DNA of 64,000 nt from Bacilli bacterium (GCA_050953065.1 JBMNLZ010000003.1:352001-416000), one strand, 5' to 3'; positions 28,849 to 64,000 are shown, counted from the first letter of the stretch. Made by a program: numbers and translations. Notes: generated from the sequence alone by a model not told the origin.

Positions 28849-31482
28849 TTAAGCATATTTTGAAGTAAAGAATAAATGTTCAACTGTAAGAGTTTCATTT
28901 CTTAATATGTCATAAACACCTTGACAGATATATCCTCTTTGAAGCATAAATCCACCAGGTTTAATTTCGTACTCAGTACCATCTCCGTTCATTGGAACTT
29001 CAATTGGAGTACAAAGTTTTGATTCTGAATCGAAGTTAAGGATAATAGCTTTGTATGCAGCCATATAGTTAAAGCCACTGAAGTAGTCTTTAGTAGGAGT
29101 TGTGCTAAGATCTTTTGGAGTATCTACAACCCAAATTGATGCATCTGTTGTGTTCTTAACAACTCTACCAAATGATCCAGATAGACCTGTTGATGCTAGA
29201 TACATCTTATCTGCGCTTTCACCAATTGCTTCGCTACCTGCTCTAACGTTTGCACTTGTAAGATTTGCATAATTAGTTTTAGCAGAAACTACATAAATTA
29301 CATACTCAACATCATTTGCTGTAATAGTTGTTTTGAAGATATTTCCGCTAAAGCCTTGCCATGAACGATCTCCAATGTTCTTTCCACCATCTGCAGCAGG
29401 TGTTTTAAAGCCATTTGTAGCAAGCCATTTTTCATAATTAAATCCTGCAAGTGAAACATCTGATGTAATAGTTATAGCAACATCACTAGGTTTTTCCGCA
29501 ATACCAACGTTAACAGTAAAGTTAACAGTTGCAGTGTTTTCAGAACCTTCTCTTGTTAGAGTTGCAACGATTGATGTTGATTTATACATAAAGTATTGTT
29601 TTAATAAATTAAATTCAGCATCAAAGATTGTAGTATCAGCAGGAGCCCATGTAATATTATAAGTATATTCTTCATGTACAAATGTTGCATCTAAATTAGT
29701 AAGTTGATTAACTGCAGTTTTTCCATATGGGAAGTGTTCTGGGATACAAGTTGATGAAAGTCCATAATAGTAAGATGCCTTATCTACATCATGTTCAAAT
29801 GGATTAATTGTAATAGGGAATGCAACATCTTGAGTAAAGTTATAAGGATAATCTGCTTGCTTATAATATACAATAGTTGCAGTTAAAGTTATTTCAGTTG
29901 CAGTTTCAACCGGAGCAACTAAAGCACCAGTATTACTAATTATATCTGTATTAGATGAAGCCCAAGTAATTGTTGTACCAAATTTTGAATCTTTAATTGG
30001 TAGTGTAATTCCACCTTTTGTAGTATAGCCATCTAAGAATTTTAAATCACCAGCAGGATCATTAACAATATAATCAATTTTTTCTGCTTGAGTATATCCT
30101 GCAGCTAAAACTGAGAATTTTCTAATTTGACTTTGACTAGCTCTTCTTAAAGATACTTCTAATGGAACTAAAACATCATCATTTCCACGTTTATAAACAC
30201 CAGCGTTAGAAATTGCATTTGCAAGTCCTGAAACCCAAGTCACTGTAACACCTTCAAAAGTAAAGCCTGCAAAATCTAGATTTGCTGCTGCTTTGAAGTC
30301 TTCATCTAAATAACCTTTTTCTTCTAAGTATGCATCTAATGCAGCTAGAGCTTCTGCTACAATAACGTCATCAGTTTTTGCAATAACAACTACTTTTACT
30401 TCAAAATTAATAACTGTTTCATTAACTGTTACTGTAGTATCAATAGTAACAACAACGTTATTAATTCCTTGTTCTGCAACAAACTCTGTAACAACTTCGC
30501 TATCTACTTGATATTCAATTGCAGCACCTGTAAATGTAGGTAGATCAAAGTTTTCTCTTGTAGAAGCAGGAATATTAGATAAAATATGGTTCTTAGCTTG
30601 ATAAGCTTTTAATAAATCAGGTTTACCAGCAGCGATAACTGCAATTGTAAATGTATAACTTACTTCACCATCAGTAATAGTAATTACAGCCTCACCCTCA
30701 TTAACACCAGTAACTTTACCTTCTTGATCAACTGTAGCTACTGTAACATCACTACTACTCCAAGTAAGTCCAGTACCTGTTAAAGAAGATAATAAAGTTG
30801 TTGATTCGCTAATAAACACATAAGATGAACCAGTAATACCAGCTAGACTAACGTCTTTTGCGATAACAATTGAAACATCGAATGTCTTAGATTTTCCACC
30901 ATAACTTACATTAACTGAAAATGTTTGTTTTAAATCTGTAGGAGCTGGTTTGTATTTAAATACAGTGCCAACTGGATGGAATGTTCCATCATAAATATAT
31001 CTAACTAAAACAACACCATCAGCATCAGGTAATACTAAATCTTCTGTTAGAACTTCAGGCAATAAATTTCTAATTGTTGCTTCAGCTCCATTTAATTTAG
31101 CCATTTTTTGAGCATCTGTTTCAATAATAGTAAATTCGATAGTTTCAACAATTGTTGTTAATTCACTAGAAGTTACAGTAATACTTACTGTCCCCTCACC
31201 TACAGCTGTAAGCAACCCTGCAGCAGAAATTGTAGCAACACTTTCATCACTACTACTCCAAGTAACTGCTTGATTTGCAATAGCTGGAGCAACAGTAGCC
31301 GATAACTGTTTTGTTTCGCCAACAATAAGTGAATCTCCACCCTCATAAATCATCATAACTTCAGTTGGTGTATCATCAAGTGGTTCGTCTTCTCCACCAT
31401 CATCACCAATCAAGTCGCACCCTACTAGAAATAATCCTAGTAAAAAGATTACAAAGAACAACGTAAATTTTTTTACATTCAT
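28849..31482 (-). CDS. Surface lipoprotein with multiple bacterial Ig-like (Big_2-type) domains
   Basis: Lipobox LVGC. Repeats VTWSSSDESVATISAAGLLTAVGEG and LTWSSSDVTVATVDQEGKVTGVNEG, plus further ITWASSNTDIISNTG-type Ig units. Confidence 0.8.
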   Translation of the reverse strand: MNVKKFTLFFVIFLLGLFLVGCDLIGDDGGEDEPLDDTPTEVMMIYEGGDSLIVGETKQLSATVAPAIANQAVTWSSSDESVATISAAGLLTAVGEGTVSITVTSSELTTIVETIEFTIIETDAQKMAKLNGAEATIRNLLPEVLTEDLVLPDADGVVLVRYIYDGTFHPVGTVFKYKPAPTDLKQTFSVNVSYGGKSKTFDVSIVIAKDVSLAGITGSSYVFISESTTLLSSLTGTGLTWSSSDVTVATVDQEGKVTGVNEGEAVITITDGEVSYTFTIAVIAAGKPDLLKAYQAKNHILSNIPASTRENFDLPTFTGAAIEYQVDSEVVTEFVAEQGINNVVVTIDTTVTVNETVINFEVKVVVIAKTDDVIVAEALAALDAYLEEKGYLDEDFKAAANLDFAGFTFEGVTVTWVSGLANAISNAGVYKRGNDDVLVPLEVSLRRASQSQIRKFSVLAAGYTQAEKIDYIVNDPAGDLKFLDGYTTKGGITLPIKDSKFGTTITWASSNTDIISNTGALVAPVETATEITLTATIVYYKQADYPYNFTQDVAFPITINPFEHDVDKASYYYGLSSTCIPEHFPYGKTAVNQLTNLDATFVHEEYTYNITWAPADTTIFDAEFNLLKQYFMYKSTSIVATLTREGSENTATVNFTVNVGIAEKPSDVAITITSDVSLAGFNYEKWLATNGFKTPAADGGKNIGDRSWQGFSGNIFKTTITANDVEYVIYVVSAKTNYANLTSANVRAGSEAIGESADKMYLASTGLSGSFGRVVKNTTDASIWVVDTPKDLSTTPTKDYFSGFNYMAAYKAIILNFDSESKLCTPIEVPMNGDGTEYEIKPGGFMLQRGYICQGVYDILRNETLTVEHLFFTSKYA

Positions 31483-31594
31483 TAATTAATTCCTCCTATA
31501 TTTTTAAGTCTAAACTCAATATTATTTTACTCTTTTTCTAAAGAAAAGTCAACAAAATACAGCAATAAAAGATTTTTTATTTAAAATTCATTCC

Positions 31595-32332
31595 TTATCC
31601 TTTTAAAAACTCAACTGTTTTTGTTAATAATTCACTTCTTACAGCAACATTATCATAACCATGGCCAGCATTTTCGATAACAATTAGTTTAGCTCCTTTA
31701 ATTGCTTTAGCATATTTTTCACCGAAACTAACATTAACCGCTAAGTCTTCTTTACCATGAACTATTAAACAAGGACATTTGATTTTTTCTAAATTAAGAT
31801 ATGGTGAAAACTTTTTAAAACTTTTAACTAAGTCCTCACTCATTTCAAAACCTAAAAAATCTACATTACCGTTTTCTAGTTTCGGATATTTTGAAAAATA
31901 ATTTTCAACAATTTGAGCAATATTTCCAGCCGGAGACCATAAAACTAATTTTTCTAAAATCTCAGGCATCTTGCTGGCCATATATCCAGCTATTGCTCCA
32001 CCCATACTAAAACCTAACAAAATTATCTTCTTTATATTTTTTATCTTAAAAGCATAATCAATTATTAATTTAGCATCTTCTACTAAAGTATCAAATGTAA
32101 ATTCATGAAATGCTCCATCAGACTCAGCATTACCATAAAAATCAAATCTTAAAGAAGCAATATTTTCTTTTGCTAGAAGCTCACTAATTGTTCTAAAAAT
32201 TCTACCATGTTCTGCTTTATGACCAGTAAAACCATGAAACATAACAACAATTTTTTTTGAAGTTTCTGGATTATTAAGGTAGCCTCTTAAATAAACATTT
32301 TCTTTTTTCTTTAATTCAACATATTTTTGCAT
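31595..32332 (-). CDS. Alpha/beta hydrolase (esterase-like)
   Basis: HGFTG, nucleophile GFSMG, HGKED and AGH triad residues. Confidence 0.88.
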   Translation of the reverse strand: MQKYVELKKKENVYLRGYLNNPETSKKIVVMFHGFTGHKAEHGRIFRTISELLAKENIASLRFDFYGNAESDGAFHEFTFDTLVEDAKLIIDYAFKIKNIKKIILLGFSMGGAIAGYMASKMPEILEKLVLWSPAGNIAQIVENYFSKYPKLENGNVDFLGFEMSEDLVKSFKKFSPYLNLEKIKCPCLIVHGKEDLAVNVSFGEKYAKAIKGAKLIVIENAGHGYDNVAVRSELLTKTVEFLKG

Positions 32333-32333: not shown

Positions 32334-33245
32334 CTATTTTCCTACCTCTTTTAAGGCATTCCTTATATGTCCTTTATTATTAGCCAAATGTTTTTTTATT
32401 TTTTCTAGATCTTTTATACCGCTTAAACTAGCAAATAAAGCCTGTTTAACAGTTTTATATTTTATTAAAGCTTGTTTTGCTTCTTCATTAGAAATTCCTA
32501 AAGCCATTTCTAAAATACCTTCTGCTCTTTTAACCAATTTTTCATTTGACATTTGAACATCTATCATTAAATTTTGATATACTTTCCCCATTTTAATCAT
32601 TGAAGCAGTTGATAACATATTACAAATCATTTTTTGAGCAGTACCTGATTTCATTCTAGTAGACCCTGTAATTGGTTCTTCTCCTGTGATGGCCTCAATT
32701 GGATAATCAACAATAGAAGCTAATTTACTATTAAAAGAAGTTACAATCGCTCCAGTTGTTGCACCAATACTTTTAGCATATTCAATTGCACTAATTACAT
32801 AGGGAGTCCTTCCACTAGCAGCAATTCCAACTACTATATCATCTTTAGTTAAATTAATTTTCTTTAAATCTTCTATTCCTAGAATCAAAGAATCTTCAGC
32901 GCCTTCAACTGACTTTACTACAGCCTCAAACCCACCTGCTATTAAACATTGAATAGTTTCATAACTAACACCAAAAGTAGGCGGGCATTCTGATGCATCT
33001 AATACTCCAATCCTGCCACTTGTTCCAGCCCCCATATAGATTAATCTTGCATCTTTATAAAAGGCTTCTACAATTTTATCAACTAATGGTGCAATTTGAG
33101 GTAAAGCTTTTTCAACTGCATAAGCAATAGTTTTATCTTCATTATTAATTTTTCTTAAAATTTCAATTGTACTAACTACATCAATATCAAGTGTATTTGA
33201 ATTTCTTTGTTCAGTTCCTATTTTTTTTAAATCTACTGCCATCAA
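32334..33245 (-). CDS. murQ: N-acetylmuramic acid 6-phosphate etherase
   Basis: TEQRN, GAGTSGRIGVLDASECPPTFG, GAED, GSTRMKSGTAQK, NLMIDV. Confidence 0.96.
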   Translation of the reverse strand: MMAVDLKKIGTEQRNSNTLDIDVVSTIEILRKINNEDKTIAYAVEKALPQIAPLVDKIVEAFYKDARLIYMGAGTSGRIGVLDASECPPTFGVSYETIQCLIAGGFEAVVKSVEGAEDSLILGIEDLKKINLTKDDIVVGIAASGRTPYVISAIEYAKSIGATTGAIVTSFNSKLASIVDYPIEAITGEEPITGSTRMKSGTAQKMICNMLSTASMIKMGKVYQNLMIDVQMSNEKLVKRAEGILEMALGISNEEAKQALIKYKTVKQALFASLSGIKDLEKIKKHLANNKGHIRNALKEVGK

Positions 33246-34362
33246 AATCTTCCTTTCTTCTAGGACTTGGTGTAATTTGGCCTAAAATTACTTCTTCTTT
33301 TGCATTTGTTACTGTAATTAGATTGCTAGGTTTATTATTTATTGTTTGATAACCTAAAACAACAAAAGCTAACGCTTCTTTAGAATCAGAAATATCTGAT
33401 TTTAAAACTTCTATTTCCAATTCCTCTTTTAATCTTTTCATAATGTAATCATTATGTGAGCCACCTCCACTAACAATTAACTTATTAAATTTTGGAATAA
33501 ATTTTTTCAAATTATAAACTATTCCAAAAACTGTGGCTTCAGTTATTGTTTTAACAACATCATTTGGCTTTTCTTTATCTAAAGCATATTTAATAATTAA
33601 CTCTTCCATAAAAGAAACACTATATTTTTCTCTACCAGTTGATTTTGGTGGATTTTTTAAAATAAAATCATCTTCTTTTAAAGCGTTAAATAGTTTTTCT
33701 ATTATTTTACCACTACTTGCTATTTCACCAGATTTATCATAATTTTTATTAAAATATTTTTTTGTGAAATAATCTATCATAATATTGCCAGGTCCACAAT
33801 CAAAAGCTATAACGTCTTTCCCACAAGCATTTTTTGGTAAATATGTAAAGTTACTAATTCCACCAATATTAAGTAAAACCAAATCCTCTTCTTTACTTAC
33901 ATATAACATATATTCAGAAAAAGGTACTAAAGGTGCTCCTTCTCCACCTGCTGCAACATCCATCACTCTAAAATTTGAAACAGTTTTTATATTAGTTAAA
34001 TAACTAATAACACTAGCTTCACCTATCTGTAATGTTGATGGAGTCGCCCCTTTTGGATCATGCCAAATAGTTTGGCCATGACTTGCAACAAACTCAATAT
34101 CTTTGTAATCAAGAAGAGTCCCTTCTAATACTTTATCGATAGCTTCTTTAAAGTAATATCCTAGTTCAAAATTTAGACTTGATACTTCATCTAATTTTGC
34201 TGTATCTTTATTTAAATTACGCATTAATTTAGCTCTAAATTTATCACTATATTCTAAAGTGATAAAATTAATAATTGAAAATTCTTCATTCAAATTAATT
34301 TTTACAAGGCAAGCATCAACTCCATCTAAAGAAGTTCCGCTCATCAAACCTATGGCATACAT
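33211..34362 (-). CDS. anmK: Anhydro-N-acetylmuramic acid kinase
   Basis: GLMSGTSLDGVD, SHGQTIWH, DVAAGGEGAPLVP, NIGGISN, FDCGPGN, PPKSTGRE, KEALAF. Confidence 0.95.
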   Translation of the reverse strand: MYAIGLMSGTSLDGVDACLVKINLNEEFSIINFITLEYSDKFRAKLMRNLNKDTAKLDEVSSLNFELGYYFKEAIDKVLEGTLLDYKDIEFVASHGQTIWHDPKGATPSTLQIGEASVISYLTNIKTVSNFRVMDVAAGGEGAPLVPFSEYMLYVSKEEDLVLLNIGGISNFTYLPKNACGKDVIAFDCGPGNIMIDYFTKKYFNKNYDKSGEIASSGKIIEKLFNALKEDDFILKNPPKSTGREKYSVSFMEELIIKYALDKEKPNDVVKTITEATVFGIVYNLKKFIPKFNKLIVSGGGSHNDYIMKRLKEELEIEVLKSDISDSKEALAFVVLGYQTINNKPSNLITVTNAKEEVILGQITPSPRRKEDFDGSRFKKNRN

Positions 34363-34377: not shown

Positions 34378-35940
34378 TTAAAAAACTTTAACTGGCAAAA
34401 TTCCTCTAGTGCCAATTTCTTTTTTCAAAAACTTAACTAAAGTTCTAATAGAATTAGGAGTATATTCATATAAACAAGAATAATTTTTAACATTTCTCAT
34501 TTCTAGAATATCATATGGATTTCTAAATGATATTACATAAACTTCCCTTCCCTTTTCTAGAAGAAGATTAACCAGTTTTGCTTGAGACGGAAAACTTTTT
34601 ACATTATATGTACAAACTAATACCTCACGAGCTGAACTTGCTTTTTCTGCTAGTTTTTCTATCTCAATATCTGTCATAATTAAAGGCATTTCAAAACATT
34701 TAACCTTAGGCAATTCTTGTTTAACTACTTCAACAAGGTTTCTAGAAGAAAGCCTATCTTCTGCAATCGTAGTTGCAAAAGGTGTTGGAGCAAAAATTAC
34801 ACTATCATCTAACAGTTCAAATGAATTTCCCATCACTTTAGTTAAAGATTCATCAACTATTCTTTGAGCTACTCTTTTATGATTAAAATTGTCAACCTTT
34901 GCTTTTGCGTAATCAAAATCAAAATTATAATAATGCTTATTTAAAGATTTTATTGCTTCATTCTTAGCATCTAAAATACGCTTAACTTTTGCATCAATTG
35001 CATCCATCGGTATTTCATTATTTAAAACTGCTTTTTCTAATAATTCTAAAGCTTTAATTTGCTTTGATTCAGTTTGTGAGATACATGCTAAATCAAGTCC
35101 TGCTTTAATCCCCATCACTGTTCCTTTTTCAGTTGTATAAATATCATCAATTGCTTTCATTTCCATACAATCGCTTACTATTAAACCTTTAAATCCTAAC
35201 TCTTTTCTAAGCAAGTCTGTTAAGACTTCTTTAGATAAAGTTGCTGGCATATTATTAACAGTATATTCTTTAAAATCGATATGAGCAGACATTATTGCTT
35301 TCACACCACTATCAATTGCAGCTTTAAAAGGCACTAATTCAACTTCTTCAATTCGCTTCCTACTGTGAGTAATTCTTGGTAGACCAAGATGAGAATCAAC
35401 ATTTGTATCTCCATGTCCTGGAAAATGTTTTGCAGTTGCAATTACACCTTCCTCTTGAATTCCGTTAATAAAAGAAACACCATATTGAGCAACCTTAGTA
35501 GGATTATCTCCATAACTTCTAACCCCAATTACAGGATTAGCAGGGTTATTGTTAACATCTAAAGACGGTGCTAAATTCATATTGATACCAAGGGCTAATA
35601 ACTCCTCCCCCATAATCCTACCAATCTCATAAGCATCATCAATACAAGTTGCTCCAAGCGTCATATTCCCAGGGCAAAAAGTTGCTCCTTCCATAATTCT
35701 AGTAACCATTCCACCTTCTTGATCAATTGTAATCAGAGGGATTGTATTTGTTGCTTCTTTTACTTCTTTATGAATTCTTTGACATAATTCATATAATTGC
35801 TTAATTGATTTAATATTTCTCGCAAACAAAATAACATTAGCTACCTTATATTCTCTAATCATTTTCTTTAAATGATCATTAAATTCATAGCCATGAAAAC
35901 CTATAATTAATAACTGACCTAATTTTTCTTTTAAATTCAT
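34378..35940 (-). CDS. nagZ: GH3 beta-N-acetylglucosaminidase (two-domain NagZ), no signal peptide
   Basis: IDQEGG, NagZ signature KHFPGHGDTNVDSH, nucleophile VSDCM. Confidence 0.9.
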   Translation of the reverse strand: MNLKEKLGQLLIIGFHGYEFNDHLKKMIREYKVANVILFARNIKSIKQLYELCQRIHKEVKEATNTIPLITIDQEGGMVTRIMEGATFCPGNMTLGATCIDDAYEIGRIMGEELLALGINMNLAPSLDVNNNPANPVIGVRSYGDNPTKVAQYGVSFINGIQEEGVIATAKHFPGHGDTNVDSHLGLPRITHSRKRIEEVELVPFKAAIDSGVKAIMSAHIDFKEYTVNNMPATLSKEVLTDLLRKELGFKGLIVSDCMEMKAIDDIYTTEKGTVMGIKAGLDLACISQTESKQIKALELLEKAVLNNEIPMDAIDAKVKRILDAKNEAIKSLNKHYYNFDFDYAKAKVDNFNHKRVAQRIVDESLTKVMGNSFELLDDSVIFAPTPFATTIAEDRLSSRNLVEVVKQELPKVKCFEMPLIMTDIEIEKLAEKASSAREVLVCTYNVKSFPSQAKLVNLLLEKGREVYVISFRNPYDILEMRNVKNYSCLYEYTPNSIRTLVKFLKKEIGTRGILPVKVF

Positions 35941-35947
35941 AACTCAC

Positions 35948-37087
35948 CTAATATAATAAATATTTCTTTCTAGTTTTACCGAATTCTTTTGTTTCTTTAT
36001 CAATAATTGAAAATAGCTTATCTATCTCATATTTATCTTCAGTCACATACCCACAACCAGTATTATATTCTAACATTCTAGGGCGTCCTTCTACATATGG
36101 TGGTAGGACTTCAAAATCATTCGGATACATTCTTCTTACAACATAAAGCATTAACCATCCAACCTTAACAGCTTGAAATTTATTTTTATCTAAAACATGA
36201 ACTTCAACACCACCACATAATTTCTTTTCATTTTTTGAAAATACAGGTGTAAAATAAAGCGGTCGGAAATATACTCCAGGAAGCTTATAACTATTAAGTT
36301 TTTCCGCATAATCATTAGAATTTATCCAAGGAGCCCCAACATATTGAAATGGTGCCGTAGTCCCTCGTCCTTCAGATACATTAGTTCCTTCAAAAATACA
36401 AGTTGCATTATAAACAACAGCCGAAAGCGGTGTTGGAAGGTTAGGTGAAGGCATCACCCAAGGAAGAAGAGTTTCTGAAAAATACATTTCTCTTTTATAA
36501 TTTTTCATCAAAATCATATGAAGTTTACATCCGATTTCATATTCTTCATTAAACAGCTTAGCAAGCTCTGCAATAGTTAAACCATGACGTTGTACAATTG
36601 GATAATATCCAACAAAAGAACGATATTCTAAATCTAAGATATTTCCTTCAAAATCTTTAGCATTAACCGGATTTGGCCTATCAAAGATAACAAACTCTTT
36701 ATCATATTCTTTACATGCCATCATAGCATAAGCCATTGTATAGATATATGTATAAAATCTAGATCCAGCATCTTGAATATCCATACATAAAATATCAATC
36801 CCATCCATCATTTCTTGAGTTGGCCTTCTAGTTTGTCCATATAAACTATGAACAATACAACCACTTTCTGGATCAAAATAAGTTTCTAATTTTTCACCAG
36901 CTTGAATATTTCCTCTAACGCCATGTTCTGGCGAAAAAAGTGCTACAAGATTTGTTTTTTCTTTTAAAACTTCAATTGAAGATCTAAAATCACTTGTCAT
37001 TCCAGTTGGATTTGTAATTAAGCCAACTCTTTTACCTGAAAAAAGATTTAAATATTCACCAATTCTTTCAATCCCTAATTTTACCAT
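35948..37087 (-). CDS. namZ: Exo-beta-N-acetylmuramidase NamZ family (DUF1343/YbbC)
   Basis: GLITNPTG, LFSPEHG, SLYG, DIQDAGSRFYTY, DRPNP, PSPNLP, FEGTNVSEGRGT. Confidence 0.9.
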   Translation of the reverse strand: MVKLGIERIGEYLNLFSGKRVGLITNPTGMTSDFRSSIEVLKEKTNLVALFSPEHGVRGNIQAGEKLETYFDPESGCIVHSLYGQTRRPTQEMMDGIDILCMDIQDAGSRFYTYIYTMAYAMMACKEYDKEFVIFDRPNPVNAKDFEGNILDLEYRSFVGYYPIVQRHGLTIAELAKLFNEEYEIGCKLHMILMKNYKREMYFSETLLPWVMPSPNLPTPLSAVVYNATCIFEGTNVSEGRGTTAPFQYVGAPWINSNDYAEKLNSYKLPGVYFRPLYFTPVFSKNEKKLCGGVEVHVLDKNKFQAVKVGWLMLYVVRRMYPNDFEVLPPYVEGRPRMLEYNTGCGYVTEDKYEIDKLFSIIDKETKEFGKTRKKYLLY

Positions 37088-37852: not shown

Positions 37853-37881
37853 AAAAAAACTGTGTCTTGCGACACAGTTTT
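37853..37881 (-). terminator. Terminator after the SBP gene
   Basis: AAAACTGTGTC-TTGC-GACACAGTTTT. Confidence 0.8.
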
Positions 37882-37891
37882 CATTATTATA

Positions 37892-40562: not shown

Positions 40563-40563
40563 A

Positions 40564-52115: not shown

Positions 52116-52129
52116 CTTGTCCTCCTTTC

Positions 52130-56313: not shown

Positions 56314-58160
56314 TTTTTTACCCCTTCTATGTATTTTAATCTTTCTTCTGAAAATACAATTAGTTTTTCAATATAATCTAACGTTTCATTTAACATGCTT
56401 TCTTTGTTTCTTTGAAGCCATAAAGTTTTTAAATCATTTTTAATTTTTAAAGCGTCTTTTAAGGCTTCTTTTAACAGTGTGATTCTTACAGTTTTTTCTA
56501 AAGAATCATTCCCACAAACATTAATTTTTAGTAATAAAGAAATCATCTCAATTGTCCAAACAACTTCATCTTTAATTAAAGAATCATTAAATTTGATAAG
56601 CTCAATTTCTTTTTTCTTATAGTTTAAATATTCTTCTGCACTTTGATATTTCTTATAACTCAAAGTATTATATTTCATCTTTTCTTTAACATATTCTATC
56701 CTATTTTCTTCTTTGAAAGAATAAGTTATCCAAAGCAACATATAAAATGTAGCAGTCCCATTACCAATATAAGCATTTTCAAAGCGATTGATTGTTCCTA
56801 AATCCATAATAGCATCTGCTATTAGGTTTTCTTTATCTTTGAAAATAAATCTATTTAAATATTGTTTAACTGATAGATAAACTCCTTCTTCACATCTGTA
56901 ACTCATTAAGCCAGCATAGACAAGTGGTGCAAAACTAAATGGTAACATCTGCATATGTCCGACATCTCCCCAATCAGTTAATAAGATTCCTTCACCACCG
57001 TTATCCTTAACAGCCCAACAAGCGTTCGCAATGTTCTCAATCCAATCACTTTGTCTTAGTGATAAACTACACCAAGAAGTAGTTCCAGGAGCTGCCATGA
57101 ATTTTACTTTGGCTTTTTTTAGCTTTTTAATATTTTTAGAGAAAGAATAAAAAGCATCATAGCCCCAATCAATAAAAATCATATCTTTTGGAAGCTTTTT
57201 AAATAACTCAGGATGATTATTTAAAACATCTCCCCAAATCAAAGGAATTTTTTTATATTTTTTTATCTCTTTATAAGCTTTTAATGTATAGTCTAAATAA
57301 ACCTTGCCAAGACCTACTTTCTCACATTCAGCCTTTGACTTACCTTTACCTAGTTCAAATGGTTCATCAAAGTTCATATTGAAGTATTTTGAATTAGAAT
57401 GAGGCAACATATCTTGATACATTTTCTTTAATAACTCTAAAGATTTTGGATCAAGTGGATTGAGTGTACTTGGCGCTCTATGAGTCCCCCATAAATGAAT
57501 TCCTTCAGGACACTCTGCCAAACTAGAAAACTCATCTTTTTTAAGCCAAGCGGCCATATGACCAAAACCATTTTGATTTGGAACTAAATCTATAAAATGT
57601 TTATTAGCATAGTCTTCAATTGCTTTATATTCTTCAACTGTAATATATGAATCCTTTTTTAAATAATCTTTAAAACTTTGATATTCAAAAGAAAAACCTT
57701 CAACATATAATTCTAAATGATTCATTTTTAAATCACTCATAATATCAATAATTTTAAAAACAGTTTCTATTTTAGGAACTTTATTTCGGCTTATGTCATA
57801 CATAAAGCCTCTTATTTTTAAATCTGGTTCATCATAGATTTCTAGACATTCTATTTGATTGTTTTTAATAATTTGTTTTAAAGTCTTAACTGCATAATAT
57901 GCACCTGGTGCATCTTTATGATAAATCGTAATAACATCTGGTTTAACTTCAATTTTATATGCTTCAGCACTTAATTTTTTGTCAATAAAAAAACGAACAT
58001 CGGCTTTTTTAGATTTACCTACTTGCAAATTTAAAAAAGAATCCAATTCTTTCTTAACTATTTCATTGGGCTTGTCAAAAAAAGCAATGCTCTTTTCTTT
58101 CATTTTGTAAACGTCGTTATTATATTTTATTTCTTTTACCTTAGGAAATATATTTACCAT
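56310..58160 (-). CDS. GH20 beta-N-acetylhexosaminidase, no signal peptide
   Basis: GH20b start IFPKVK...EAYKI, RGFMYDISR, FGHM, catalytic NMNFDE, WGD, LLTDWGD. Confidence 0.85.
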   Translation of the reverse strand: MVNIFPKVKEIKYNNDVYKMKEKSIAFFDKPNEIVKKELDSFLNLQVGKSKKADVRFFIDKKLSAEAYKIEVKPDVITIYHKDAPGAYYAVKTLKQIIKNNQIECLEIYDEPDLKIRGFMYDISRNKVPKIETVFKIIDIMSDLKMNHLELYVEGFSFEYQSFKDYLKKDSYITVEEYKAIEDYANKHFIDLVPNQNGFGHMAAWLKKDEFSSLAECPEGIHLWGTHRAPSTLNPLDPKSLELLKKMYQDMLPHSNSKYFNMNFDEPFELGKGKSKAECEKVGLGKVYLDYTLKAYKEIKKYKKIPLIWGDVLNNHPELFKKLPKDMIFIDWGYDAFYSFSKNIKKLKKAKVKFMAAPGTTSWCSLSLRQSDWIENIANACWAVKDNGGEGILLTDWGDVGHMQMLPFSFAPLVYAGLMSYRCEEGVYLSVKQYLNRFIFKDKENLIADAIMDLGTINRFENAYIGNGTATFYMLLWITYSFKEENRIEYVKEKMKYNTLSYKKYQSAEEYLNYKKKEIELIKFNDSLIKDEVVWTIEMISLLLKINVCGNDSLEKTVRITLLKEALKDALKIKNDLKTLWLQRNKESMLNETLDYIEKLIVFSEERLKYIEGVKK

Positions 58161-58344: not shown

Positions 58345-59685
58345 TTACTTTTCAAATTTTATTGTTATAACAGGCCTTATTCCAATAGTCGAATAAGCAT
58401 TGTTAAAGCCTGTAACACTAACCTTACCATCAAAGAAAACCCCTGATAAATATTGCATTGTAAAACCAGGTGATCTTGAGAAATATTTTCCTTGATTAGT
58501 AGAAGAATTTTCAACACCTGTTTTAATTGCAAACTCAGTATTATAAGCAATCCTATTAGAATCTGCTTCATCTGTTTTTGTTTTAAATCCAAAACGCTTT
58601 CTAATCAAATCATTGTATGATAACAAATAAACATAATCTTGTGTATCATCACCTTCATTAGCAGCATAGGCAGGATAAGAAATTCCTTTATTAGAAACGG
58701 TTGTTAAAACAATCCCACTTTTTTCGCTACTACTAAATGAAGCATTATAAAAATCATTGTTTAACCAAAATCTTAAATAACTATTCTTCCAAGTTTTATC
58801 GTTATTATCAACAATTACAATTTTATAATTAACAACTGTTGTTTCTTCTGGATGTTCTTTTGTAGGGCCACTTCCAGTTATTGTTACTTCACCTTTTGAA
58901 ATTGCATTTACCATTACTTGTACTTGAGCTTTTAGTTCTCCTTTTACTCCATTAATTACCCAATATCCCGCTTCATCAATTTCTAGTTCAGCGCTAGTTG
59001 CTTCTCCTACTGGAACATATGTATTTTTACCTTCAATCCACCAATTGTTATCAGAGCCAACTGTAGCTTTAATTGTATCGATATTTTTACTTACTAAAGC
59101 AAGATTTTCATCACTTGAGGTCCAAGTAGAATTTACTAAATCCATATTAGTAGCCCCTATATAAATACTTCTTGTTTCTCCGATTCCAAATAAATAATTA
59201 TGATAAGAAGCTTTAGAATCTAATATTTTATCAGATACAAGAACCGCATTAACCCCATCAATACTTAAAATTTTCCATTCAATTGAATCAACTAAGAAAA
59301 ACTCTCTTGATTCAATGTAGGTTTCTTCTCCTTCAACTACTTCTCTTGTAAAAGTAGAAACTTTAGCATAACGATGTCCTTCATATGGGTAATATCCATA
59401 ACTATCAGCAAGAATTGTCTCTTCATCAATTCCAGCATTTAACGATGCAATTATTTCATCATCTGTTACTAATCTTTGAGGATATTCACCATAAAACATT
59501 TTACTATAAGTTACAGTATTTTTCTCTACATCAATAATTGGATTATGATATCCTGCATCAAAATAATACGTTACCTTTTCTGGAGTAGTTATTGCCTCAG
59601 GATCACTATCAACAGGGCTTTTATCACAAGCACTAAGTACTAATAATAAAACTATAATCAATGAGCAAAATAATCTCTTCTTCAT
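58345..59685 (-). CDS. Lipoprotein with a DUF6273-like domain interrupted by an Ig-like insertion
   Basis: Start at the ATG at 59685 (MKKRLF...LSAC lipobox). YGEYPQ, IEWKIL, SDKILD, WKNSYLRFWLNNDFY, DYVYLLS, C-terminal GIRPVI. Confidence 0.65.
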   Translation of the reverse strand: MKKRLFCSLIIVLLLVLSACDKSPVDSDPEAITTPEKVTYYFDAGYHNPIIDVEKNTVTYSKMFYGEYPQRLVTDDEIIASLNAGIDEETILADSYGYYPYEGHRYAKVSTFTREVVEGEETYIESREFFLVDSIEWKILSIDGVNAVLVSDKILDSKASYHNYLFGIGETRSIYIGATNMDLVNSTWTSSDENLALVSKNIDTIKATVGSDNNWWIEGKNTYVPVGEATSAELEIDEAGYWVINGVKGELKAQVQVMVNAISKGEVTITGSGPTKEHPEETTVVNYKIVIVDNNDKTWKNSYLRFWLNNDFYNASFSSSEKSGIVLTTVSNKGISYPAYAANEGDDTQDYVYLLSYNDLIRKRFGFKTKTDEADSNRIAYNTEFAIKTGVENSSTNQGKYFSRSPGFTMQYLSGVFFDGKVSVTGFNNAYSTIGIRPVITIKFEK

Positions 59686-59755
59686 TTTATTACCTCTAAA
59701 CAAATTTATTTGATAACTCATTTTAACAAATATTTAAACAATTAGCAAGAAAAAG

Positions 59756-59796: not shown

Positions 59797-61101
59797 TTAA
59801 ACTGGCTTTACTTCTTTTGTCCAAATGGTTTTTAATAATTTCCTACCTTCAACAAGGGCAACAACATCTTCTTTAACAAAAGAATTATAAGTAAAATAAA
59901 TTGTTCCAGAAATATTGTCATAATTTTGATTATACCTAAGTTGATTAATTATCTCTTCTGGATTACTCCAATTTCCTTTATCGCTATAGCGATAAAATGC
60001 TTGACCAATATATAATTTCGTATTAGTTTCTTTACAAATTCCACTCCACCATTTTACTAAATCAGCATATTTTACTAAAGTGATTTCTTCTAAAGAACCA
60101 TCTTCTTTTGGTTTAGAATTATCTAAATCAAAATAAACTTGAGGTACTACGTAATCAATCCATTTTTCTTTCATCCATAAGTAAACATCTGCATAAAGTC
60201 TATCATAACATTGCAAGCATTTCTCATGATTATCAGACCCTTTATCCCAACCACCAACTCCAGATTCAAAATATTTTGAATGAGTTCTAAAAATACCAAA
60301 AGGACTGATTCCAAATTCTACCTTTTTAGGAAGTCTAGCTAACTTATCATGAATAAGTTTAATCATACGATTAACATTGTCTCTTCTAAAGTCACTCAAA
60401 GATTCATCATTTTTCTTCCATTTTAAATATTTTTCTTGTTCTTTATCATCACAAATTTCCTCATAAGGATAAAAATAATCATCGATATGAACAGCTTTTA
60501 TATCATAGTTTTCAGCAATTTCTAAAACTGAATCAGAAACAAATTCCATTACTTCTTCACTTGATGGGTCTAGAATTAGTTTTGTTTCTGAAGTTTCAAT
60601 TACTAAATCAGGACGCTTGCGAGCAAAGTTTTTCTCACTTAATGTTTTTAAAAAGTCATCTTTATTAGTATTTAAATCTTTTAATCTTTTTTGACAAACA
60701 CGATATGGATTAATCCAAGCATGAACTTCAATGTTTTCCTTTTTAGCTTCTTCTATAAAGAAACCAAAAACATCAAAGCCAGGATATTTATCCTCAATTC
60801 CAGTAATATATGCACTCCAAGGATTTAACTTTGATTTATAAAATGCATCATTTGTTGGTCTTGCTTGAAAAATAACTGTATTCATTTTATATTCTTTAAC
60901 ACGTTTTATAACACTTTTTAAATATTCTTTATAACTTTCAACACTAGTCATTTTAGCTACATCAATATTAGCAACAGTCGAAAACCAAACACCACGCAAT
61001 TCTTCTTGCTTTTCTTTATATTCATCTGGTATTAAAACAGCCTCATCGCTTCCATAATAAGTAACAAAACCTTCTTTTTTAAACTTAGCAATTTTTTTCA
61101 T
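59797..61101 (-). CDS. GHL10/DUF187 glycoside hydrolase (DigH/YddW/YngK family), no signal peptide
   Basis: ELRGVWFSTVANID, FQARP, EVHAWINPYR, HIDDYFYP, FGISPFG, IDYVVPQVY. Confidence 0.85.
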   Translation of the reverse strand: MKKIAKFKKEGFVTYYGSDEAVLIPDEYKEKQEELRGVWFSTVANIDVAKMTSVESYKEYLKSVIKRVKEYKMNTVIFQARPTNDAFYKSKLNPWSAYITGIEDKYPGFDVFGFFIEEAKKENIEVHAWINPYRVCQKRLKDLNTNKDDFLKTLSEKNFARKRPDLVIETSETKLILDPSSEEVMEFVSDSVLEIAENYDIKAVHIDDYFYPYEEICDDKEQEKYLKWKKNDESLSDFRRDNVNRMIKLIHDKLARLPKKVEFGISPFGIFRTHSKYFESGVGGWDKGSDNHEKCLQCYDRLYADVYLWMKEKWIDYVVPQVYFDLDNSKPKEDGSLEEITLVKYADLVKWWSGICKETNTKLYIGQAFYRYSDKGNWSNPEEIINQLRYNQNYDNISGTIYFTYNSFVKEDVVALVEGRKLLKTIWTKEVKPV

Positions 61102-61102: not shown

Positions 61103-61795
61103 TTATATCTCCTTATTTCTTATAAATTTTTGATAGTCTTCAACTGCAAAAGCAGCAGCATTTTTCGTTTTATTTAAAGCACCCCTTACAAAAGATAAAT
61201 GCGTATAATAATCATAATATTTAAATGAAGGACTATTCATAATAAACCAATGTTTTTGAATTGCTTTACACCATAAATCATATCCTTCAGTCCCATCAAT
61301 ATAAACATATGGAACAAAGCCATCTCGATCTTCCCAGTTTTCACAGTAATATATAGGAGCATAATGTCTTTCACCTTCTACCTTATCGCCCATATCAACG
61401 CCAGCATAAAAAGCTGCATCAACTACGTTTAAATAAGTATTTCTATGATCTTTATGCATACTGTTTTTCCAATGCGTAAAGATAGCACTTGGTTTATATT
61501 TTCTAATTAAACTAGCAATTCTAAACTTAACTTCATCATTAACTGGTAACTCTCCATCAGGATATTCAAAAACAATTGCATCCCCTTTTAACATACGAGC
61601 AAATTCGCTAGCTTCTTTTTCTTTTTGAAGCCTATATTCTTCTACACTCATACCTTTAGGATTACCACGCTCTCCTCCAGTTAAAGCAATAGTTACAATT
61701 TTATTTCCCTTTAAACTTTCAGTAGCAAGAATTAACCCTGCCGTTAATTCCATATCACCAACATGGCCACCAATTGCTAAAAATGTTTTACTCAT
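61103..61795 (-). CDS. PIG-L/LmbE family N-deacetylase with an atypical HVGD motif
   Basis: LAIGGHVGDMEL, LTGGERG, PDGEL, IFTH, HKDH. Confidence 0.8.
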   Translation of the reverse strand: MSKTFLAIGGHVGDMELTAGLILATESLKGNKIVTIALTGGERGNPKGMSVEEYRLQKEKEASEFARMLKGDAIVFEYPDGELPVNDEVKFRIASLIRKYKPSAIFTHWKNSMHKDHRNTYLNVVDAAFYAGVDMGDKVEGERHYAPIYYCENWEDRDGFVPYVYIDGTEGYDLWCKAIQKHWFIMNSPSFKYYDYYTHLSFVRGALNKTKNAAAFAVEDYQKFIRNKEI

Positions 61796-61798: not shown

Positions 61799-62782
61799 TT
61801 ATAAATCCTTTCTTAAAATCGCAAAAGATTGCACTAATCTAAAACCTGCATAAAAATAAAGATTTCTTGCAGGATTTTCACTACCTGTAAAAAGTGTCAT
61901 AAACTTAGCACCATTTTGTTTTGAAATATAACACAAATAACAAAATAGCGTTTTACCTAATCCTCTTCCTTGAACTTTAGGATGAACTCCTACTCCATCA
62001 AAATGCCCTCTCCCACCATCCTCAGTATAAACAGCACCAGTCCAGCCTAAAATTTCTCCATCCTTTTCAACAATTAGCATCGGTTTTGGATCTTTTTTTG
62101 CTAGATTATTTTCAGTTACTGCTTTCCAACCAGGATTATTTAATGCCTCAAACAATTCATTAAAACCATGATGTTTTTTAGAATCATACATTGTTATATT
62201 ATAACCATCAGCTTTATTTTGTTCAATTTGTTCTACTACTTTTTGTGGTAATTCATAATTTTGTAAGTCTAAGAAATAACCATCTAATTGTCCATTATTT
62301 GTATAACGATTATTCATAAACAAAAAATAATATTTTGAATTATAAGGAATCGCTGGAGCCCCACCATGATAGGCATCCTCATTTGGAATTAACCATTTAA
62401 AATTAACTGGATTATAAAACATTAATCTAACAAACTTTTTACCCTTGTCTTTCAAAAAATCTTCTAAGGCTTTTAAAACAAGTGAACCATAACCATTTTT
62501 TTGATGTTCATTTTTAATAAAAACACATGTAATAAAACCAGGAGTTTCCTCAATGTTTTCATCATTTTTATTAATCATTGCATTCCCATAACCAATTGGT
62601 TCTCCTGCTAAAGTTATAGTCAAACTGCCTTCAGAATCATAGTTAGAATTTTTCATAAAAGTTTGTTTAAATAATTCAACTGTAAAAGGAGCATAAACTG
62701 AATTTCCTACTACATCACTATTCCAAATTGAAACTAGCGTTGATACATCTTCATCTTTAAATTTTCTAATTTCCATTAACAT
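61799..62782 (-). CDS. Tandem-GNAT N-acetyltransferase
   Basis: QKNGYG and QGRGLG AcCoA motifs, NPARNLYFYAGF. Confidence 0.85.
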   Translation of the reverse strand: MLMEIRKFKDEDVSTLVSIWNSDVVGNSVYAPFTVELFKQTFMKNSNYDSEGSLTITLAGEPIGYGNAMINKNDENIEETPGFITCVFIKNEHQKNGYGSLVLKALEDFLKDKGKKFVRLMFYNPVNFKWLIPNEDAYHGGAPAIPYNSKYYFLFMNNRYTNNGQLDGYFLDLQNYELPQKVVEQIEQNKADGYNITMYDSKKHHGFNELFEALNNPGWKAVTENNLAKKDPKPMLIVEKDGEILGWTGAVYTEDGGRGHFDGVGVHPKVQGRGLGKTLFCYLCYISKQNGAKFMTLFTGSENPARNLYFYAGFRLVQSFAILRKDL

Positions 62783-62811: not shown

Positions 62812-63879
62812 TTAAGTAAAGTTAGCGATTATATAATTTCCAATTTTACTTCTAAAAGGAATTATCTTATTGTTTTCTCTTGTTGGATGAACTCTATTAC
62901 TTAACATACAAAAAGCAATTTTATTATCTCTATCAATAAATAAATTAGTCCCCGTAAAACCAGTATGTAAAATTGTATTAGGACTTGCTAAGTCTCCACA
63001 TGATGGATAATCACTCTTTAAGATCCACCCTAACCCTCTTTTACTACCAACTAAACTAATTCCTTCTTTTTCTTCTACTTGTGGGGTAAAAAGCAAATCA
63101 ATACTTGCTTTAGATAAAATGCGTCTACCTTTATATACTCCATTATTTAAAATCATTTCCATAAAGTTACCAATATCATCTGCTGTTGAAAATACTCCAG
63201 CATGTCCTGCAACACCACCTAAAATATAAGCTTTTTCATCATGAACTTTTCCACGTAATAAATCCTGACAAATAGCATCATTTCTTTTTTCAGTTGGAGC
63301 ACATCTTTCAGTATTTTTAGGATTATATGTTGTATCTTTCATATCAAGTTTTGAAAAAACATATAATTTAGCTGCTCTATCTAAACCCATTCCTGAAACT
63401 GTTTCAATTAGTTTCCCCAGCAAAATAAAACCGATATCTGAATATATTATCTTTTCACTTCTTCCTGCTTTAAGTGGTACTTTATAAGCAAAATCAAAAA
63501 CCTCTTCAGGCTTTGCTAGTGTATTAGCTTTAGGAATATCAGGTACTAAACCTGAAGTATGAGTCATTAAATCAAAGATAGTAATATCATCGTTTTTAAA
63601 ATCAGGCAAGTATTTACTAACACTATCATAAAGCCTTATTTTACCCGCTTCTAATAATTGCATTAAAAGTGTAGTTGTAGAAACAACTTTCGAAACTGAA
63701 GCCATATCATAAATTGTATTAATATAATTTTCTTCCTTTTTAGGAAGCAACGCTTTATACCCAAAAGCTCCAGTATAACGCCTCTTTCCTGCAATCAAAC
63801 AATAAGTCGCACCGGGAAAAACACCATCTTTAACAGCTTCTTCCATCAAATCATTAAACCCAATCATTTTAGAATTCAT
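62812..63879 (-). CDS. Beta-lactamase-fold serine hydrolase, AmiE/YbbE-like (putative MurNAc-L-Ala amidase), no signal peptide
   Basis: SxxK in YDMASVSK, LMTHTSGL, YSDIGF, VHDEKA...GGVAGHAGVFS, HTGFTG, LSNRVHP. Probable start at the ATG at 63879. Confidence 0.8.
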   Translation of the reverse strand: MNSKMIGFNDLMEEAVKDGVFPGATYCLIAGKRRYTGAFGYKALLPKKEENYINTIYDMASVSKVVSTTTLLMQLLEAGKIRLYDSVSKYLPDFKNDDITIFDLMTHTSGLVPDIPKANTLAKPEEVFDFAYKVPLKAGRSEKIIYSDIGFILLGKLIETVSGMGLDRAAKLYVFSKLDMKDTTYNPKNTERCAPTEKRNDAICQDLLRGKVHDEKAYILGGVAGHAGVFSTADDIGNFMEMILNNGVYKGRRILSKASIDLLFTPQVEEKEGISLVGSKRGLGWILKSDYPSCGDLASPNTILHTGFTGTNLFIDRDNKIAFCMLSNRVHPTRENNKIIPFRSKIGNYIIANFT

Positions 63880-64000
63880 AAACTTTCCCCTTAAATCTAT
63901 TATAAAAATTATCAAATGTGATTTTTTTAATTACATTATCACTATAGCCTTTAACACGAAGCCTTTCAATTAAAAGATTAATTTCAGTTACTTTAGAAAT

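Follow-up and report, generated by a model that had tools for sequence, protein, structure and literature searches.

What does a bacterium that appears to make no peptidoglycan do with a long series of genes for breaking it down? This question is raised by a 64,000-nt stretch of DNA from a Bacilli bacterium (GCA_050953065.1, JBMNLZ010000003.1:352001-416000; hereafter the window), in which a block of 25 open reading frames (ORFs) of 229-1068 aa extends from position 28849 to position 63915. All 25 lie on the minus strand, as does every frame of at least 100 aa between these positions, all are intact, and the intergenic gaps do not exceed 185 nt. Based on gene families and on comparison with related genomes, we consider it probable (about 0.7) that the block serves the catabolism of peptidoglycan fragments in an organism that makes no peptidoglycan itself, and that it was present before the wall was lost and was kept thereafter.

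An initial annotation of the window had described a contiguous, co-oriented locus of ~35 kb for foraging on peptidoglycan. Each gene family named there was matched by Pfam and NCBIfam, the second NagZ falling just below its cut-off, and the block itself was recovered as described. Its length was not, since the 35-kb extent is set by the window edge: the block continues past base 64000 into a gene for a fusion of LysA (diaminopimelate decarboxylase) with an M19 dipeptidase, which lies further upstream and is syntenic in relatives. With this fusion counted, the full block comprises at least 26 genes. Beyond those listed initially, we found genes for a DUF624 protein, a DUF5696 protein, a Yip1-domain protein, a 568-aa NHL-like protein, and a DUF6273 lipoprotein.

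Genes for MurNAc metabolism

Three genes of the block belong to families that act on N-acetylmuramic acid (MurNAc) compounds, which to our knowledge occur only in peptidoglycan. These are MurQ, the MurNAc-6-phosphate etherase (32334-33245; TIGR00274, 356.2 bits against a cut-off of 302; SIS domains), AnmK, the 1,6-anhydro-MurNAc kinase (33211-34362; PF03702 over positions 1-365 of 367, 1.5e-95; NF007148, 401.4 bits against 387), and a NamZ-family exo-beta-N-acetylmuramidase (35948-37087). The latter carries both the NamZ_N and the NamZ_C domain (PF07075, 4.4e-83, 278 bits; PF20732, 1.2e-46, 160 bits); its N-terminus is not hydrophobic and has no lipobox, unlike that of the secreted Bacillus subtilis enzyme.

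Around them lie further genes for the breakdown of amino sugars and peptides. Two encode NagZ-like beta-N-acetylhexosaminidases of glycoside hydrolase family 3 (GH3), one of 520 aa (34378-35940; PF00933, 1.4e-96; NF003740, 219.3 bits against 207) and one of 502 aa (41273-42781; PF00933, 1e-80; NF003740, 204.3 bits). A GH20 beta-hexosaminidase-like protein (56310-58160; PF00728, 7e-17; PF02838, 1.3e-12) has its best PDB hexosaminidase match at 6.1e-14, and NagB, the glucosamine-6-phosphate deaminase (40564-41286), scores 307.8 bits against 236.9 with TIGR00502. The 434-aa GHL10 protein of the Cwp19/DigH family (59797-61101; PF02638, 2.2e-53, 181.8 bits) matches the structure of the Cwp19 catalytic domain (5oq2) over residues 27-427 at E 4.1e-66 in a phmmer search. 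An AmiE-like gene (62812-63879; PF00144, 3.4e-56, 191 bits) encodes a protein of the serine beta-lactamase/DD-peptidase fold. Its longest ORF reaches to 63915, but translation probably begins with the ATG at 63879, upstream of which lies GGGG. The motifs SVSK, YSD, and HTG (SxxK, Yx[ND], and [KH][ST]G) are present and synteny is conserved; the best NCBIfam match is PBP4B (167.6 bits, below its cut-off of 385), which we take to be the yfeW product encoded beside murQ-murP in Escherichia coli.

A hydropathy and lipobox script run on the block proteins found no signal peptide on MurQ, AnmK, both NagZ proteins, NamZ, GH20, GHL10, the PIG-L protein, the GNAT proteins, the AmiE-like protein, the LysA-M19 fusion, or the esterase. 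Lipoboxes were found on an 877-aa Big_2 protein, on the solute-binding protein (SBP) SBP549, and on the DUF6273 protein, and N-terminal anchors on DUF5696, SBP1030, and the 568-aa protein. Given enzymes devoid of signal peptides, the locus would import fragments. The suggestion of the initial annotation that it serves to eat the walls of prey is not borne out by its glycosidases, which fit fragment uptake, nor by the genome, in which no GH25 or GH73 was found.

The host lacks markers of wall synthesis

The source genome (G000) is a 1,554,579-bp assembly of 3 contigs with a completeness of 93.9% and a contamination of 1.2%, in which TGA is a stop codon, as judged by the long ORFs obtained under table 11. 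Profile searches found in it no PBP transpeptidase (PF00905), no SEDS protein (FtsW/RodA, PF01098), no MraY-type protein (PF00953), no GT51 (PF00912), and no murG. The murA model retrieved AroA alone (NCBIfam aroA 309 against 287, murA 47 against 393), and the sole Mur_ligase_M match was FolC (334 against 163). The same wall-marker models scored over their own cut-offs in 9-12 of 14 named control genomes. The search for wall-synthesis genes that the initial annotation had proposed as a check on its wall-less host thus yielded none of seven marker families while the controls scored. The organism is taken to be wall-less, with the missing 6% of the assembly as the residual doubt.

One might suppose that the genome does encode a wall, that the genes lie in the unassembled 6% or are too divergent, and that the block serves ordinary recycling. 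A completeness below 100% leaves some room for this, but seven independent and normally dispersed marker families would all have to be missing while controls score, the same absence recurs in 13 relatives, and the assembly has only 3 contigs, so that we give this explanation next to no weight. Because G000 is without wall-synthesis markers, self-recycling is very unlikely; because the locus holds genes for MurNAc catabolism and its host makes none, the substrate would have to be foreign peptidoglycan. To this extent the initial view of a utilisation rather than a recycling locus stands. An origin of the locus in wall-less cells is not supported, as it is syntenic in walled relatives.

Walled and wall-less relatives share the locus

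We compared G000 with 40 related genomes, taking as wall markers MraY, PBP transpeptidase, and at least four Mur_ligase_M matches. The three markers coincided exactly across the 41 genomes. All were present in 27 of them, namely in all 16 genomes of the sister family f2 and in 11 of the 24 relatives of the own family f1; the other 13 f1 relatives, which are 86-98% complete, had, like G000, no MraY, no PBP transpeptidase, and at most three Mur_ligase_M matches. The order of G000, which the initial annotation had called Acholeplasmatales-like, is thus not uniformly wall-less: f2 is walled throughout, f1 is mixed, and G000 itself has no marker. These counts touch on a point that the initial annotation had named as evidence against its view, namely placement in a walled lineage. 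Within genus g6, one genome (G006) has neither MraY nor PBP transpeptidase and a single Mur-ligase match, and another (G023) has all markers; wall loss in this genus looks very recent, or the genus is mixed. The mixed lineage agrees with published accounts: multiple independent losses of peptidoglycan have been described in these orders, with mur genes in 40-60% of Anaeroplasmataceae genomes (Field et al. 2024, PMC10868615), and mraY and murG are patchy in RF39 and RFN20 (Wang et al. 2020, PMC7301438). The word "muramic" occurs in neither text, and "murQ" and "anmK" do not occur in that of PMC10868615.

AnmK was found in 34 of the 41 genomes, NamZ in 35, and GHL10 in 37. Among the 13 wall-less relatives, 11 have AnmK, 12 NamZ, and 12 GHL10 (G017 is without all three, G016 without AnmK), and AnmK is also present in 7 of the 11 walled f1 relatives and in 15 of the 16 f2 genomes. 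Synteny was assessed by tblastn of the window proteins against the neighbourhoods of 11 relatives, six from f1 and five from f2. Nearly the whole gene order, from the housekeeping gene Dus to the terminal Big_2 lipoprotein, is kept in f1, both in wall-less (G011, G020, G018, G012, G006) and in walled (G024) genomes; Dus and M19 were seen in four of these six, and LysA in three of the four (not in G018). The five walled f2 genomes have a shorter core, consisting of NagZ, NagB, GNAT, SBP, DUF624, NamZ, AnmK, MurQ, and the hydrolase in four of them and of DUF624, NamZ, AnmK, MurQ, and the hydrolase alone in G038.

As the locus is syntenic in walled and wall-less kin, it predates wall loss. This indicates that it did not arise as an adaptation of wall-less cells, and the informative part is its intact retention after the wall was lost.

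Related loci in other families of the class

To place the locus in the class, we used a sample of 399-400 genomes of at least 90% completeness, with MraY alone as wall proxy. No MraY match was found in 207 genomes, of which 40 have AnmK: 13 in f1 (including G000), one in f2, and 26 in five other families that are almost wholly MraY-negative (16 in f13, 4 in f18, 3 in f19, 2 in f16, and 1 in f21). We compared ~40 kb around AnmK in ten AnmK-positive genomes of these five families. In nine of the ten, AnmK is found with three tandem GHL10 genes and an AmiE-like gene, followed by a Big_2-SBP and a homologue of SBP1030; as far as the stretches reach, these nine also contain the 358-aa permease (in 7), the DUF975-permease (4), the 568-aa protein (3), and Yip1 and DUF5696 (2 each). 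The tenth genome has AnmK and MurQ only. In several wall-less lineages, the second importer of the block, and probably also DUF5696 as its partner, is thereby tied to the metabolism of anhydro-MurNAc. The mapping across relatives proposed initially thus returned the locus from walled as well as wall-less kin, and a related one from nine of ten genomes sampled in five further families.

One of the ten stretches, from the wall-less G157 (C1:1310001-1350000), carries the block of AnmK, three GHL10 genes, the AmiE-like gene, and SBPs at a GC content of 54%, compared to 27-37% in the other nine; the locus thus spans very different base compositions. An anhydro-MurNAc kinase gene is also listed, uncommented, among the 17 coding sequences of a 17-kb plasmid of the likewise wall-less Mycoplasma columborale (PMC11720521). 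A search with AnmK among named genomes, from which the source record was excluded, gave just two distant matches, in a Kapaibacterium and in a Planctomycetota metagenome-assembled genome (42% and 33% identity).

The distribution bears on whether the block in G000 might be an undecayed relic of self-recycling that has no present function. Wall loss is patchy and seemingly recent, genus g6 holds walled and wall-less species, and the locus is common to walled kin, all of which a recent relic would explain. It would not explain why all 25 ORFs are intact, why 11-12 of 13 wall-less relatives, from at least nine genera, and other, almost wholly MraY-negative families have kept the locus, or why G000, with 11 GHL10 matches, exceeds each of the 40 relatives, which have 0-8; in addition, contigs from RNA libraries match the locus (see below). 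We regard a functionless relic as very improbable.

Proposed route from wall fragments to glycolysis

For the catabolism of foreign peptidoglycan fragments, the following route may be proposed. Outside the cell, six Amidase_2 lipoproteins, seven secreted GHL10 proteins, one of them with an NlpC/P60 domain, and a Big_2 GH3 protein would strip stem peptides and cut the glycan. Two SBP-dependent ATP-binding cassette (ABC) importers would then take up oligosaccharides and muropeptides. To importer 1 belongs SBP549, a lipoprotein with an N-terminal Big_2 domain (37892-39541; Big_2, 8e-16; SBP_bac_1, 2.6e-08; lipobox Cys20), and two ABC permeases of 354 and 372 aa are encoded at 42849-44979 (BPD_transp_1, 5.4e-09 and 1.6e-06). 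Importer 2 includes a 504-aa DUF975-permease fusion and a 358-aa permease (50601-53206; DUF975, 1.2e-20, with BPD_transp_1, 5.1e-09; BPD_transp_1, 2e-11), next to which lies SBP1030, a membrane-anchored solute-binding protein with an N-terminal extension of ~650 aa (53221-56313; SBP_bac_8, 2.3e-18, at residues 653-935; transmembrane segment at residue 6). Importer 2 consistently comes with the NHL-like protein, the Yip1 protein, and the membrane-anchored DUF5696 protein, whose predicted fold is glycosidase-like. No ABC ATPase is encoded in the locus, and uptake would be powered by an orphan MsmX/UgpC-type ATPase encoded elsewhere (G000 C2:40503-41621; 484 against 432). With two SBPs, four permeases, two GH3 proteins, GH20, NamZ, GHL10, and DUF5696 in one orientation, the block has the layout of a glycan-utilisation locus of the Gram-positive type.

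In the cytoplasm, the two NagZ proteins and GH20 would remove N-acetylglucosamine (GlcNAc) and NamZ would remove MurNAc, while the signal-less GHL10 protein would cut oligomers and the AmiE-like serine hydrolase would free the peptides. A lytic transglycosylase action like that of Cwp19 would supply 1,6-anhydro-MurNAc ends for AnmK, which would form MurNAc-6-phosphate, to be split by MurQ into GlcNAc-6-phosphate and D-lactate. NagA, encoded elsewhere in G000 (C2:386232-387377; 342 against 226), and NagB would lead on to fructose-6-phosphate and into glycolysis. N-deacetylated or O-acetylated glycan may be handled by a PIG-L/LmbE-family de-N-acetylase (61103-61795; PF02585, 2e-18; PDB matches to BshB-type and diacetylchitobiose deacetylases, 8e-11 to 3e-08), by double-GNAT acetyltransferases of 318 aa (39636-40592; Acetyltransf_1, 4.8e-20, two stretches) and 327 aa (61799-62782; 3.2e-23, two stretches), and by an esterase-like alpha/beta hydrolase (31595-32332; Hydrolase_4, 1e-22), which lies directly downstream of MurQ and follows it in 11 of 11 relatives compared.

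Recovery of the stem-peptide amino acids could fall to the M19 dipeptidase and LysA, together with the racemases for glutamate and alanine that the genome has retained. G000 encodes MurI (189 against 146.65) and Alr (219 against 168), and each is over its cut-off in 10 of 13 wall-less relatives; among the 11 walled f1 relatives, Alr is so in just six. Where D-Glu and D-Ala are not required for making murein, the presence of racemases is consistent with stem-peptide catabolism, though they may have other uses.

Weighing the proposed route

Several points weigh against catabolism of peptidoglycan as the role of the locus. The steps of the route are read from gene families and synteny only, and the absence of wall genes from an assembly that is 93.9% complete. 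Walled relatives conserve the locus just as well and may recycle their own wall, so that its original role need not have been foraging. No recognisable MurNAc kinase was found in G000, though NamZ would release MurNAc; the candidate sugar kinases are one ROK protein and one weak BadF-type match (62 bits, below cut-off). The locus has no regulator, in that Pfam gave no DNA-binding or sensor family on any of its ORFs. Family searches found no GH25 or GH73 muramidase or glucosaminidase in G000. The contigs from RNA libraries may contain DNA and cannot rank expression. DapF is present in G000, and LysA may simply complete lysine biosynthesis. Finally, GH20, GH3, NagB, PIG-L, and DUF5696 are not specific for peptidoglycan.

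The last point extends to DUF5696 in particular. The gene (44981-48187) encodes a 1068-aa protein with an N-terminal membrane anchor (PF18952, 1.4e-119; transmembrane helix at residues 3-21). An AlphaFold2 model built from 40 sequences (mean pLDDT 87.3, pTM 0.78) was compared to the PDB with Foldseek, which returned GH129 (5opq, E 2.6e-24, target-normalised TM score 0.59; NagBb, 5wzr, TM score 0.61), followed by GH101 and barrels of the GH36/GH31 type. Residue E960 is invariant and D513 nearly so. The protein is accordingly predicted from its model to be a membrane-anchored, glycosidase-like ectoenzyme. A sequence search against solved structures gave no match, an atlas search found its own family only, and a literature search found no paper on DUF5696. 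Its closest named homologues are from a Bacilli bacterium (83% identity), an Acholeplasmataceae bacterium (44%), a Ca. Izimaplasma sp. (32%), and an Acholeplasma sp. (30%).

These data raise the question whether the block is a general locus for amino-sugar glycans, in which peptidoglycan plays only a small part next to chitin oligomers, exopolysaccharides, teichoic-acid sugars, or other glycans of GlcNAc or N-acetylgalactosamine (GalNAc), and the DUF5696 module serves a glycan other than peptidoglycan. The fold matches of DUF5696 are the alpha-N-acetylgalactosaminidases of GH129 and GH101 and a 3,6-anhydrogalactosidase, enzymes acting on alpha-linked sugars, which are absent from peptidoglycan, and homologues occur in Caldicellulosiruptor and Paenibacillus. 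GH20, the two GH3 proteins, NagB, and the diacetylchitobiose-deacetylase-like PIG-L protein are generic GlcNAc enzymes, and GDPD and metallophosphoesterase genes have been inserted beside the locus in G000. Against this broader role stand MurQ, AnmK, and NamZ, whose action on MurNAc compounds exclusive to peptidoglycan is established knowledge, the closeness of the GHL10 protein to the peptidoglycan enzyme Cwp19, and the neighbourhoods in other families, where the genes of importer 2 adjoin AnmK, three GHL10 genes, and the AmiE-like gene, with DUF5696 present in two of nine genomes. On balance we consider a general amino-sugar locus unlikely.

A further question is whether the imported sugars and peptides would be used for energy at all. 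The LysA-M19 fusion (729 aa; TIGR01048, 417.5 bits against 297.9; Peptidase_M19, 6.6e-68) enters the window with its 3' end (63869-64000, minus strand) and runs on to G000:C3:418058 (whole gene, G000:C3:415872-418058). Its stop at 63869 overlaps the likely ATG (63879) of the AmiE-like gene, and its M19 part resembles bacterial and renal dipeptidases. Such a fusion inside the locus would suit a biosynthetic salvage, in which GlcNAc and MurNAc are turned into UDP-GlcNAc for glycolipids, capsule, or glycoproteins, or lysine is made from diaminopimelate. GlcNAc-6-phosphate is an established branch point between the two fates, and scavenging of muropeptides has been proposed for related reduced genomes (Field et al., PMC10868615). 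The pairing of NagB in the locus with NagA elsewhere corresponds to the catabolic direction, however, and since G000 has DapF, diaminopimelate may be made in-house. We find salvage for biosynthesis improbable as the main use, compared to catabolism of the fragments.

Since G000 has DapF, the role of LysA may be purely biosynthetic, and the proposal that LysA salvages foreign diaminopimelate because the pathway to it is gone was dropped as a firm claim. LysA is over its cut-off in 35 of the 41 genomes. It is fused to M19, in frames of 730-762 aa, in 12 f1 genomes including G000, walled as well as wall-less; in other f1 genomes LysA and M19 are adjacent but separate genes, and in f2 LysA stands alone, with ~430-450 aa.

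Predicted secreted hydrolases encoded elsewhere in the genome

A tblastn search of the locus proteins against G000, followed by ORF extraction and Pfam, identified seven further GHL10 proteins (654, 698, 765, 818, 943, 2548, and 3095 aa), all of which have signal peptides. The two largest carry 12 and 8 Big_2 stretches, and the 3095-aa protein additionally has four Flg_new repeats and a C-terminal NlpC/P60 endopeptidase domain. Their genes are adjacent (G000:C3:8485-25481), and the GHL10 domain is N-terminal in both. The search also identified six Amidase_2 lipoproteins of 668-1193 aa, most with 8 Big_2 stretches, and one surface GH3 protein of 899 aa with three Big_2 stretches. The Amidase_2 proteins found via the 668-aa lipoprotein are surface lipoproteins, except for a 154-aa fragment, and none is evidently AmpD-like.

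Three of the Amidase_2 lipoproteins (~1100-1190 aa) are encoded in tandem near the start of contig C2 (G000:C2:24079-34456), and a copy near the end of C3 (565492-569073) agrees with them in the first 42 residues and in all Pfam domain coordinates; these repeats may explain the assembly breaks there.

This set of surface proteins suggests a more far-reaching possibility, namely that wall loss is itself part of a peptidoglycan-lytic lifestyle. A murein-free cell would be immune to its own lytic enzymes, could display Big_2-stalked amidases, GHL10 cutters, and NlpC/P60 proteins of up to 3095 aa on its surface, and would attack living or dead neighbours, whose debris would enter via the locus. 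We put this forward tentatively and hold it to be rather doubtful. Classical lysozyme-type bacteriolysis was considered and set aside, as there was no GH73 or GH25 match; SLT/MltG, M23, and CHAP were not searched. If such a lifestyle existed, the G000 group and similar Acholeplasma-like families would live in digesters and guts as specialists on bacterial walls, perhaps even as contact-dependent bacteriolytic predators, and there would be a genetic basis for the bacteriolysis by Anaeroplasma reported in 1975 (as cited in PMC5165256).

Should catabolism of foreign fragments be the role of the locus, many small wall-less or thin-walled relatives of Acholeplasma would be wall-fragment specialists, which could be found and enriched with the locus as a marker. 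For a lineage that already lives on foreign walls with secreted hydrolases, giving up its own wall may cost little and make it safer, an argument that bears on the repeated wall loss in this class (PMC10868615). The signal-less NamZ and GHL10 proteins, the two muropeptide-type ABC importers, and the predicted glycosidase DUF5696 are candidates that can be assayed.

Habitat and RNA libraries

DNA near-identical to that of the window (45-97% of sampled words) was found in sequencing runs from digesters, bioreactors, activated sludge, sludge, and biogas fermenters, which belong to eight studies besides the possible source study. Sludge-fed digesters are rich in dead bacterial biomass, and in sludge, guts, and sediments a large store of organic carbon and nitrogen is present as peptidoglycan. 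The organisms that degrade it without oxygen are poorly known; anaerobic degradation has been shown by enrichment from digester sludge, with no Tenericutes among the enriched phyla in the available part of that report (PMC7511781).

In RNA libraries (four runs of three studies, of which X15 and X16 are from one sample), contigs at least 95% and mostly at least 99% alike extended over 18-21 of 30 bins; bins without cover (e.g. 35502-36835 and 41505-42171) say nothing on silence. The longest contigs (1580-1660 nt, depth ~11) run from 37914-37917 to 39496-39567 and cover the SBP549 gene. They end close to a terminator-like hairpin on the minus strand just after this gene (37855-37882; 12-bp stem and T-run), the contigs ending at 37914-37917 being those of X15 and X16. 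The SBP549 contigs are a weak hint of transcription. A promoter scan was uninformative, with 90 promoter-like sites compared to 91.9 expected by chance, and the hairpin after the SBP549 gene was the one terminator-like structure that stood out.

Comparison with known systems

Among the closest known systems is that of B. subtilis, whose operon murQ-murR-murP-amiE-nagZ-namZ(ybbC) encodes secreted NagZ, AmiE, and NamZ, with MurNAc entering by the MurP phosphotransferase system (PTS) under control of MurR (PMC8054146). The two have in common MurQ, a GH3 NagZ, NamZ, and an AmiE-type gene of the beta-lactamase fold in one block. In contrast to B. subtilis, the NagZ, NamZ, and AmiE homologues of G000 have no signal peptides, Pfam identified neither a PTS family nor an RpiR/MurR family among the 25 ORFs and the upstream genes, and G000 has two ABC importers, additional AnmK, GHL10, GH20, NagB, and DUF5696 proteins, and no wall to recycle.

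Cytoplasmic recycling in E. coli proceeds by AmpG, NagZ, AmpD, AnmK, MurQ, NagA, and NagB. G000 appears to follow the same cytoplasmic logic of fragment import followed by NagZ, an amidase, AnmK, and MurQ, and in this respect is closer to E. coli than to B. subtilis. It differs in that Pfam gave no major facilitator superfamily (AmpG-like) protein on the 25 ORFs, with ABC importers instead, in that no evident AmpD-like Amidase_2 was among the proteins found via the 668-aa lipoprotein, and in that murein would not be re-used, as MurA, MurG, MraY, and the Mur ligases were not found. Tannerella forsythia (MurT, MurK, MurQ, AmpG, NamZ1/2) resembles G000 in taking peptidoglycan sugars from neighbours and in having NamZ-family enzymes. 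It is walled, however, and needs MurNAc for its own wall, whereas use in G000 would have to be catabolic or for other glycans, and G000 has ABC importers and AnmK as transporters and kinase.

For the likewise wall-less Spiroplasma, murP and murQ have been described, and it was suggested that MurNAc comes from other bacteria (PMC3762197). That system consists of two genes with PTS uptake of the free sugar, whereas the block of G000 has 26 genes or more, among them those for ABC importers, AnmK, NamZ, NagZ, GHL10, and the handling of peptides, and is complemented by the predicted secreted hydrolases encoded elsewhere. In the literature as far as it was available, these two genes and the 1975 report on Anaeroplasma (cited in PMC5165256) are the only earlier counterparts. 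Apart from Spiroplasma murPQ, our literature search found no AnmK/MurQ/NamZ locus described in Acholeplasma, Anaeroplasma, Izemoplasma, RF39-type, or other wall-less bacteria. The initial statement that no locus of this composition is described therefore holds for the papers found, with the qualification that Spiroplasma murP/murQ was known and that a related locus is present in nine of the ten genomes sampled from other families.

The GHL10 family also has well-studied members. Cwp19 is a cell-wall-anchored autolysin, and DigH is a periplasmic lipoprotein that acts on the cell's own septal, denuded glycan. G000, in contrast, has one signal-less copy and seven copies with signal peptides in a cell taken to be wall-less, all of them predicted glycan cutters. 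Cwp19 of Clostridioides difficile has been described as a lytic transglycosylase (PMC6016235).

Remaining features and surroundings of the block

The last gene of the block, which adjoins the rRNA operon, encodes the 877-aa surface lipoprotein with Big_2 and aBig_2 domains (28849-31482; 1.4e-18 and 1.1e-14; lipobox Cys22). Weak homologues of it (26-30% identity) lie at the same end of the locus in five of six f1 relatives (G020, G011, G012, G006, and G024, not G018). The DUF624 integral membrane protein (37068-37787; PF04854, 3.9e-05, at its cut-off) has six predicted helices by hydropathy, and its gene adjoins NamZ in 11 of 11 relatives compared. The Yip1-domain membrane protein (48193-48882; PF04893, 1.2e-10) has six hydrophobic segments. 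The adjoining gene encodes the 568-aa NHL-repeat-like protein (48882-50588), a secreted protein with a signal-like N-terminus and a C-terminal anchor (transmembrane segment at 530), for which atlas features matched NHL-repeat clusters at 0.99, a lead only. The DUF6273 lipoprotein (58345-59721; PF19789, 2e-16; lipobox Cys32) has 458 aa.

Upstream of LysA-M19, G000:C3:418459-426734 encodes a 1130-aa Big_2-metallophosphoesterase lipoprotein, a GDPD protein, and a 1334-aa Big_2 lipoprotein, beyond which lie the housekeeping genes Dus, a deaminase, and thymidine kinase. Because Dus directly adjoins LysA in G011, G020, and G024, the trio looks like an insertion particular to G000. Paralogues of the set are found in G000 at C3:~537-543 kb and C3:~86-88 kb, and it might act on phosphodiester polymers of the teichoic-acid type.

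On the other side, just downstream of the block, lies the rRNA operon (5S, 23S, 16S, and tRNAs; 23535-28562); outside of it the window has a GC content of ~29%. The housekeeping part of the window further contains a tmRNA gene (4540-4892) and a gene for a Fic-domain protein (16045-16851), both of which are ordinary-looking.

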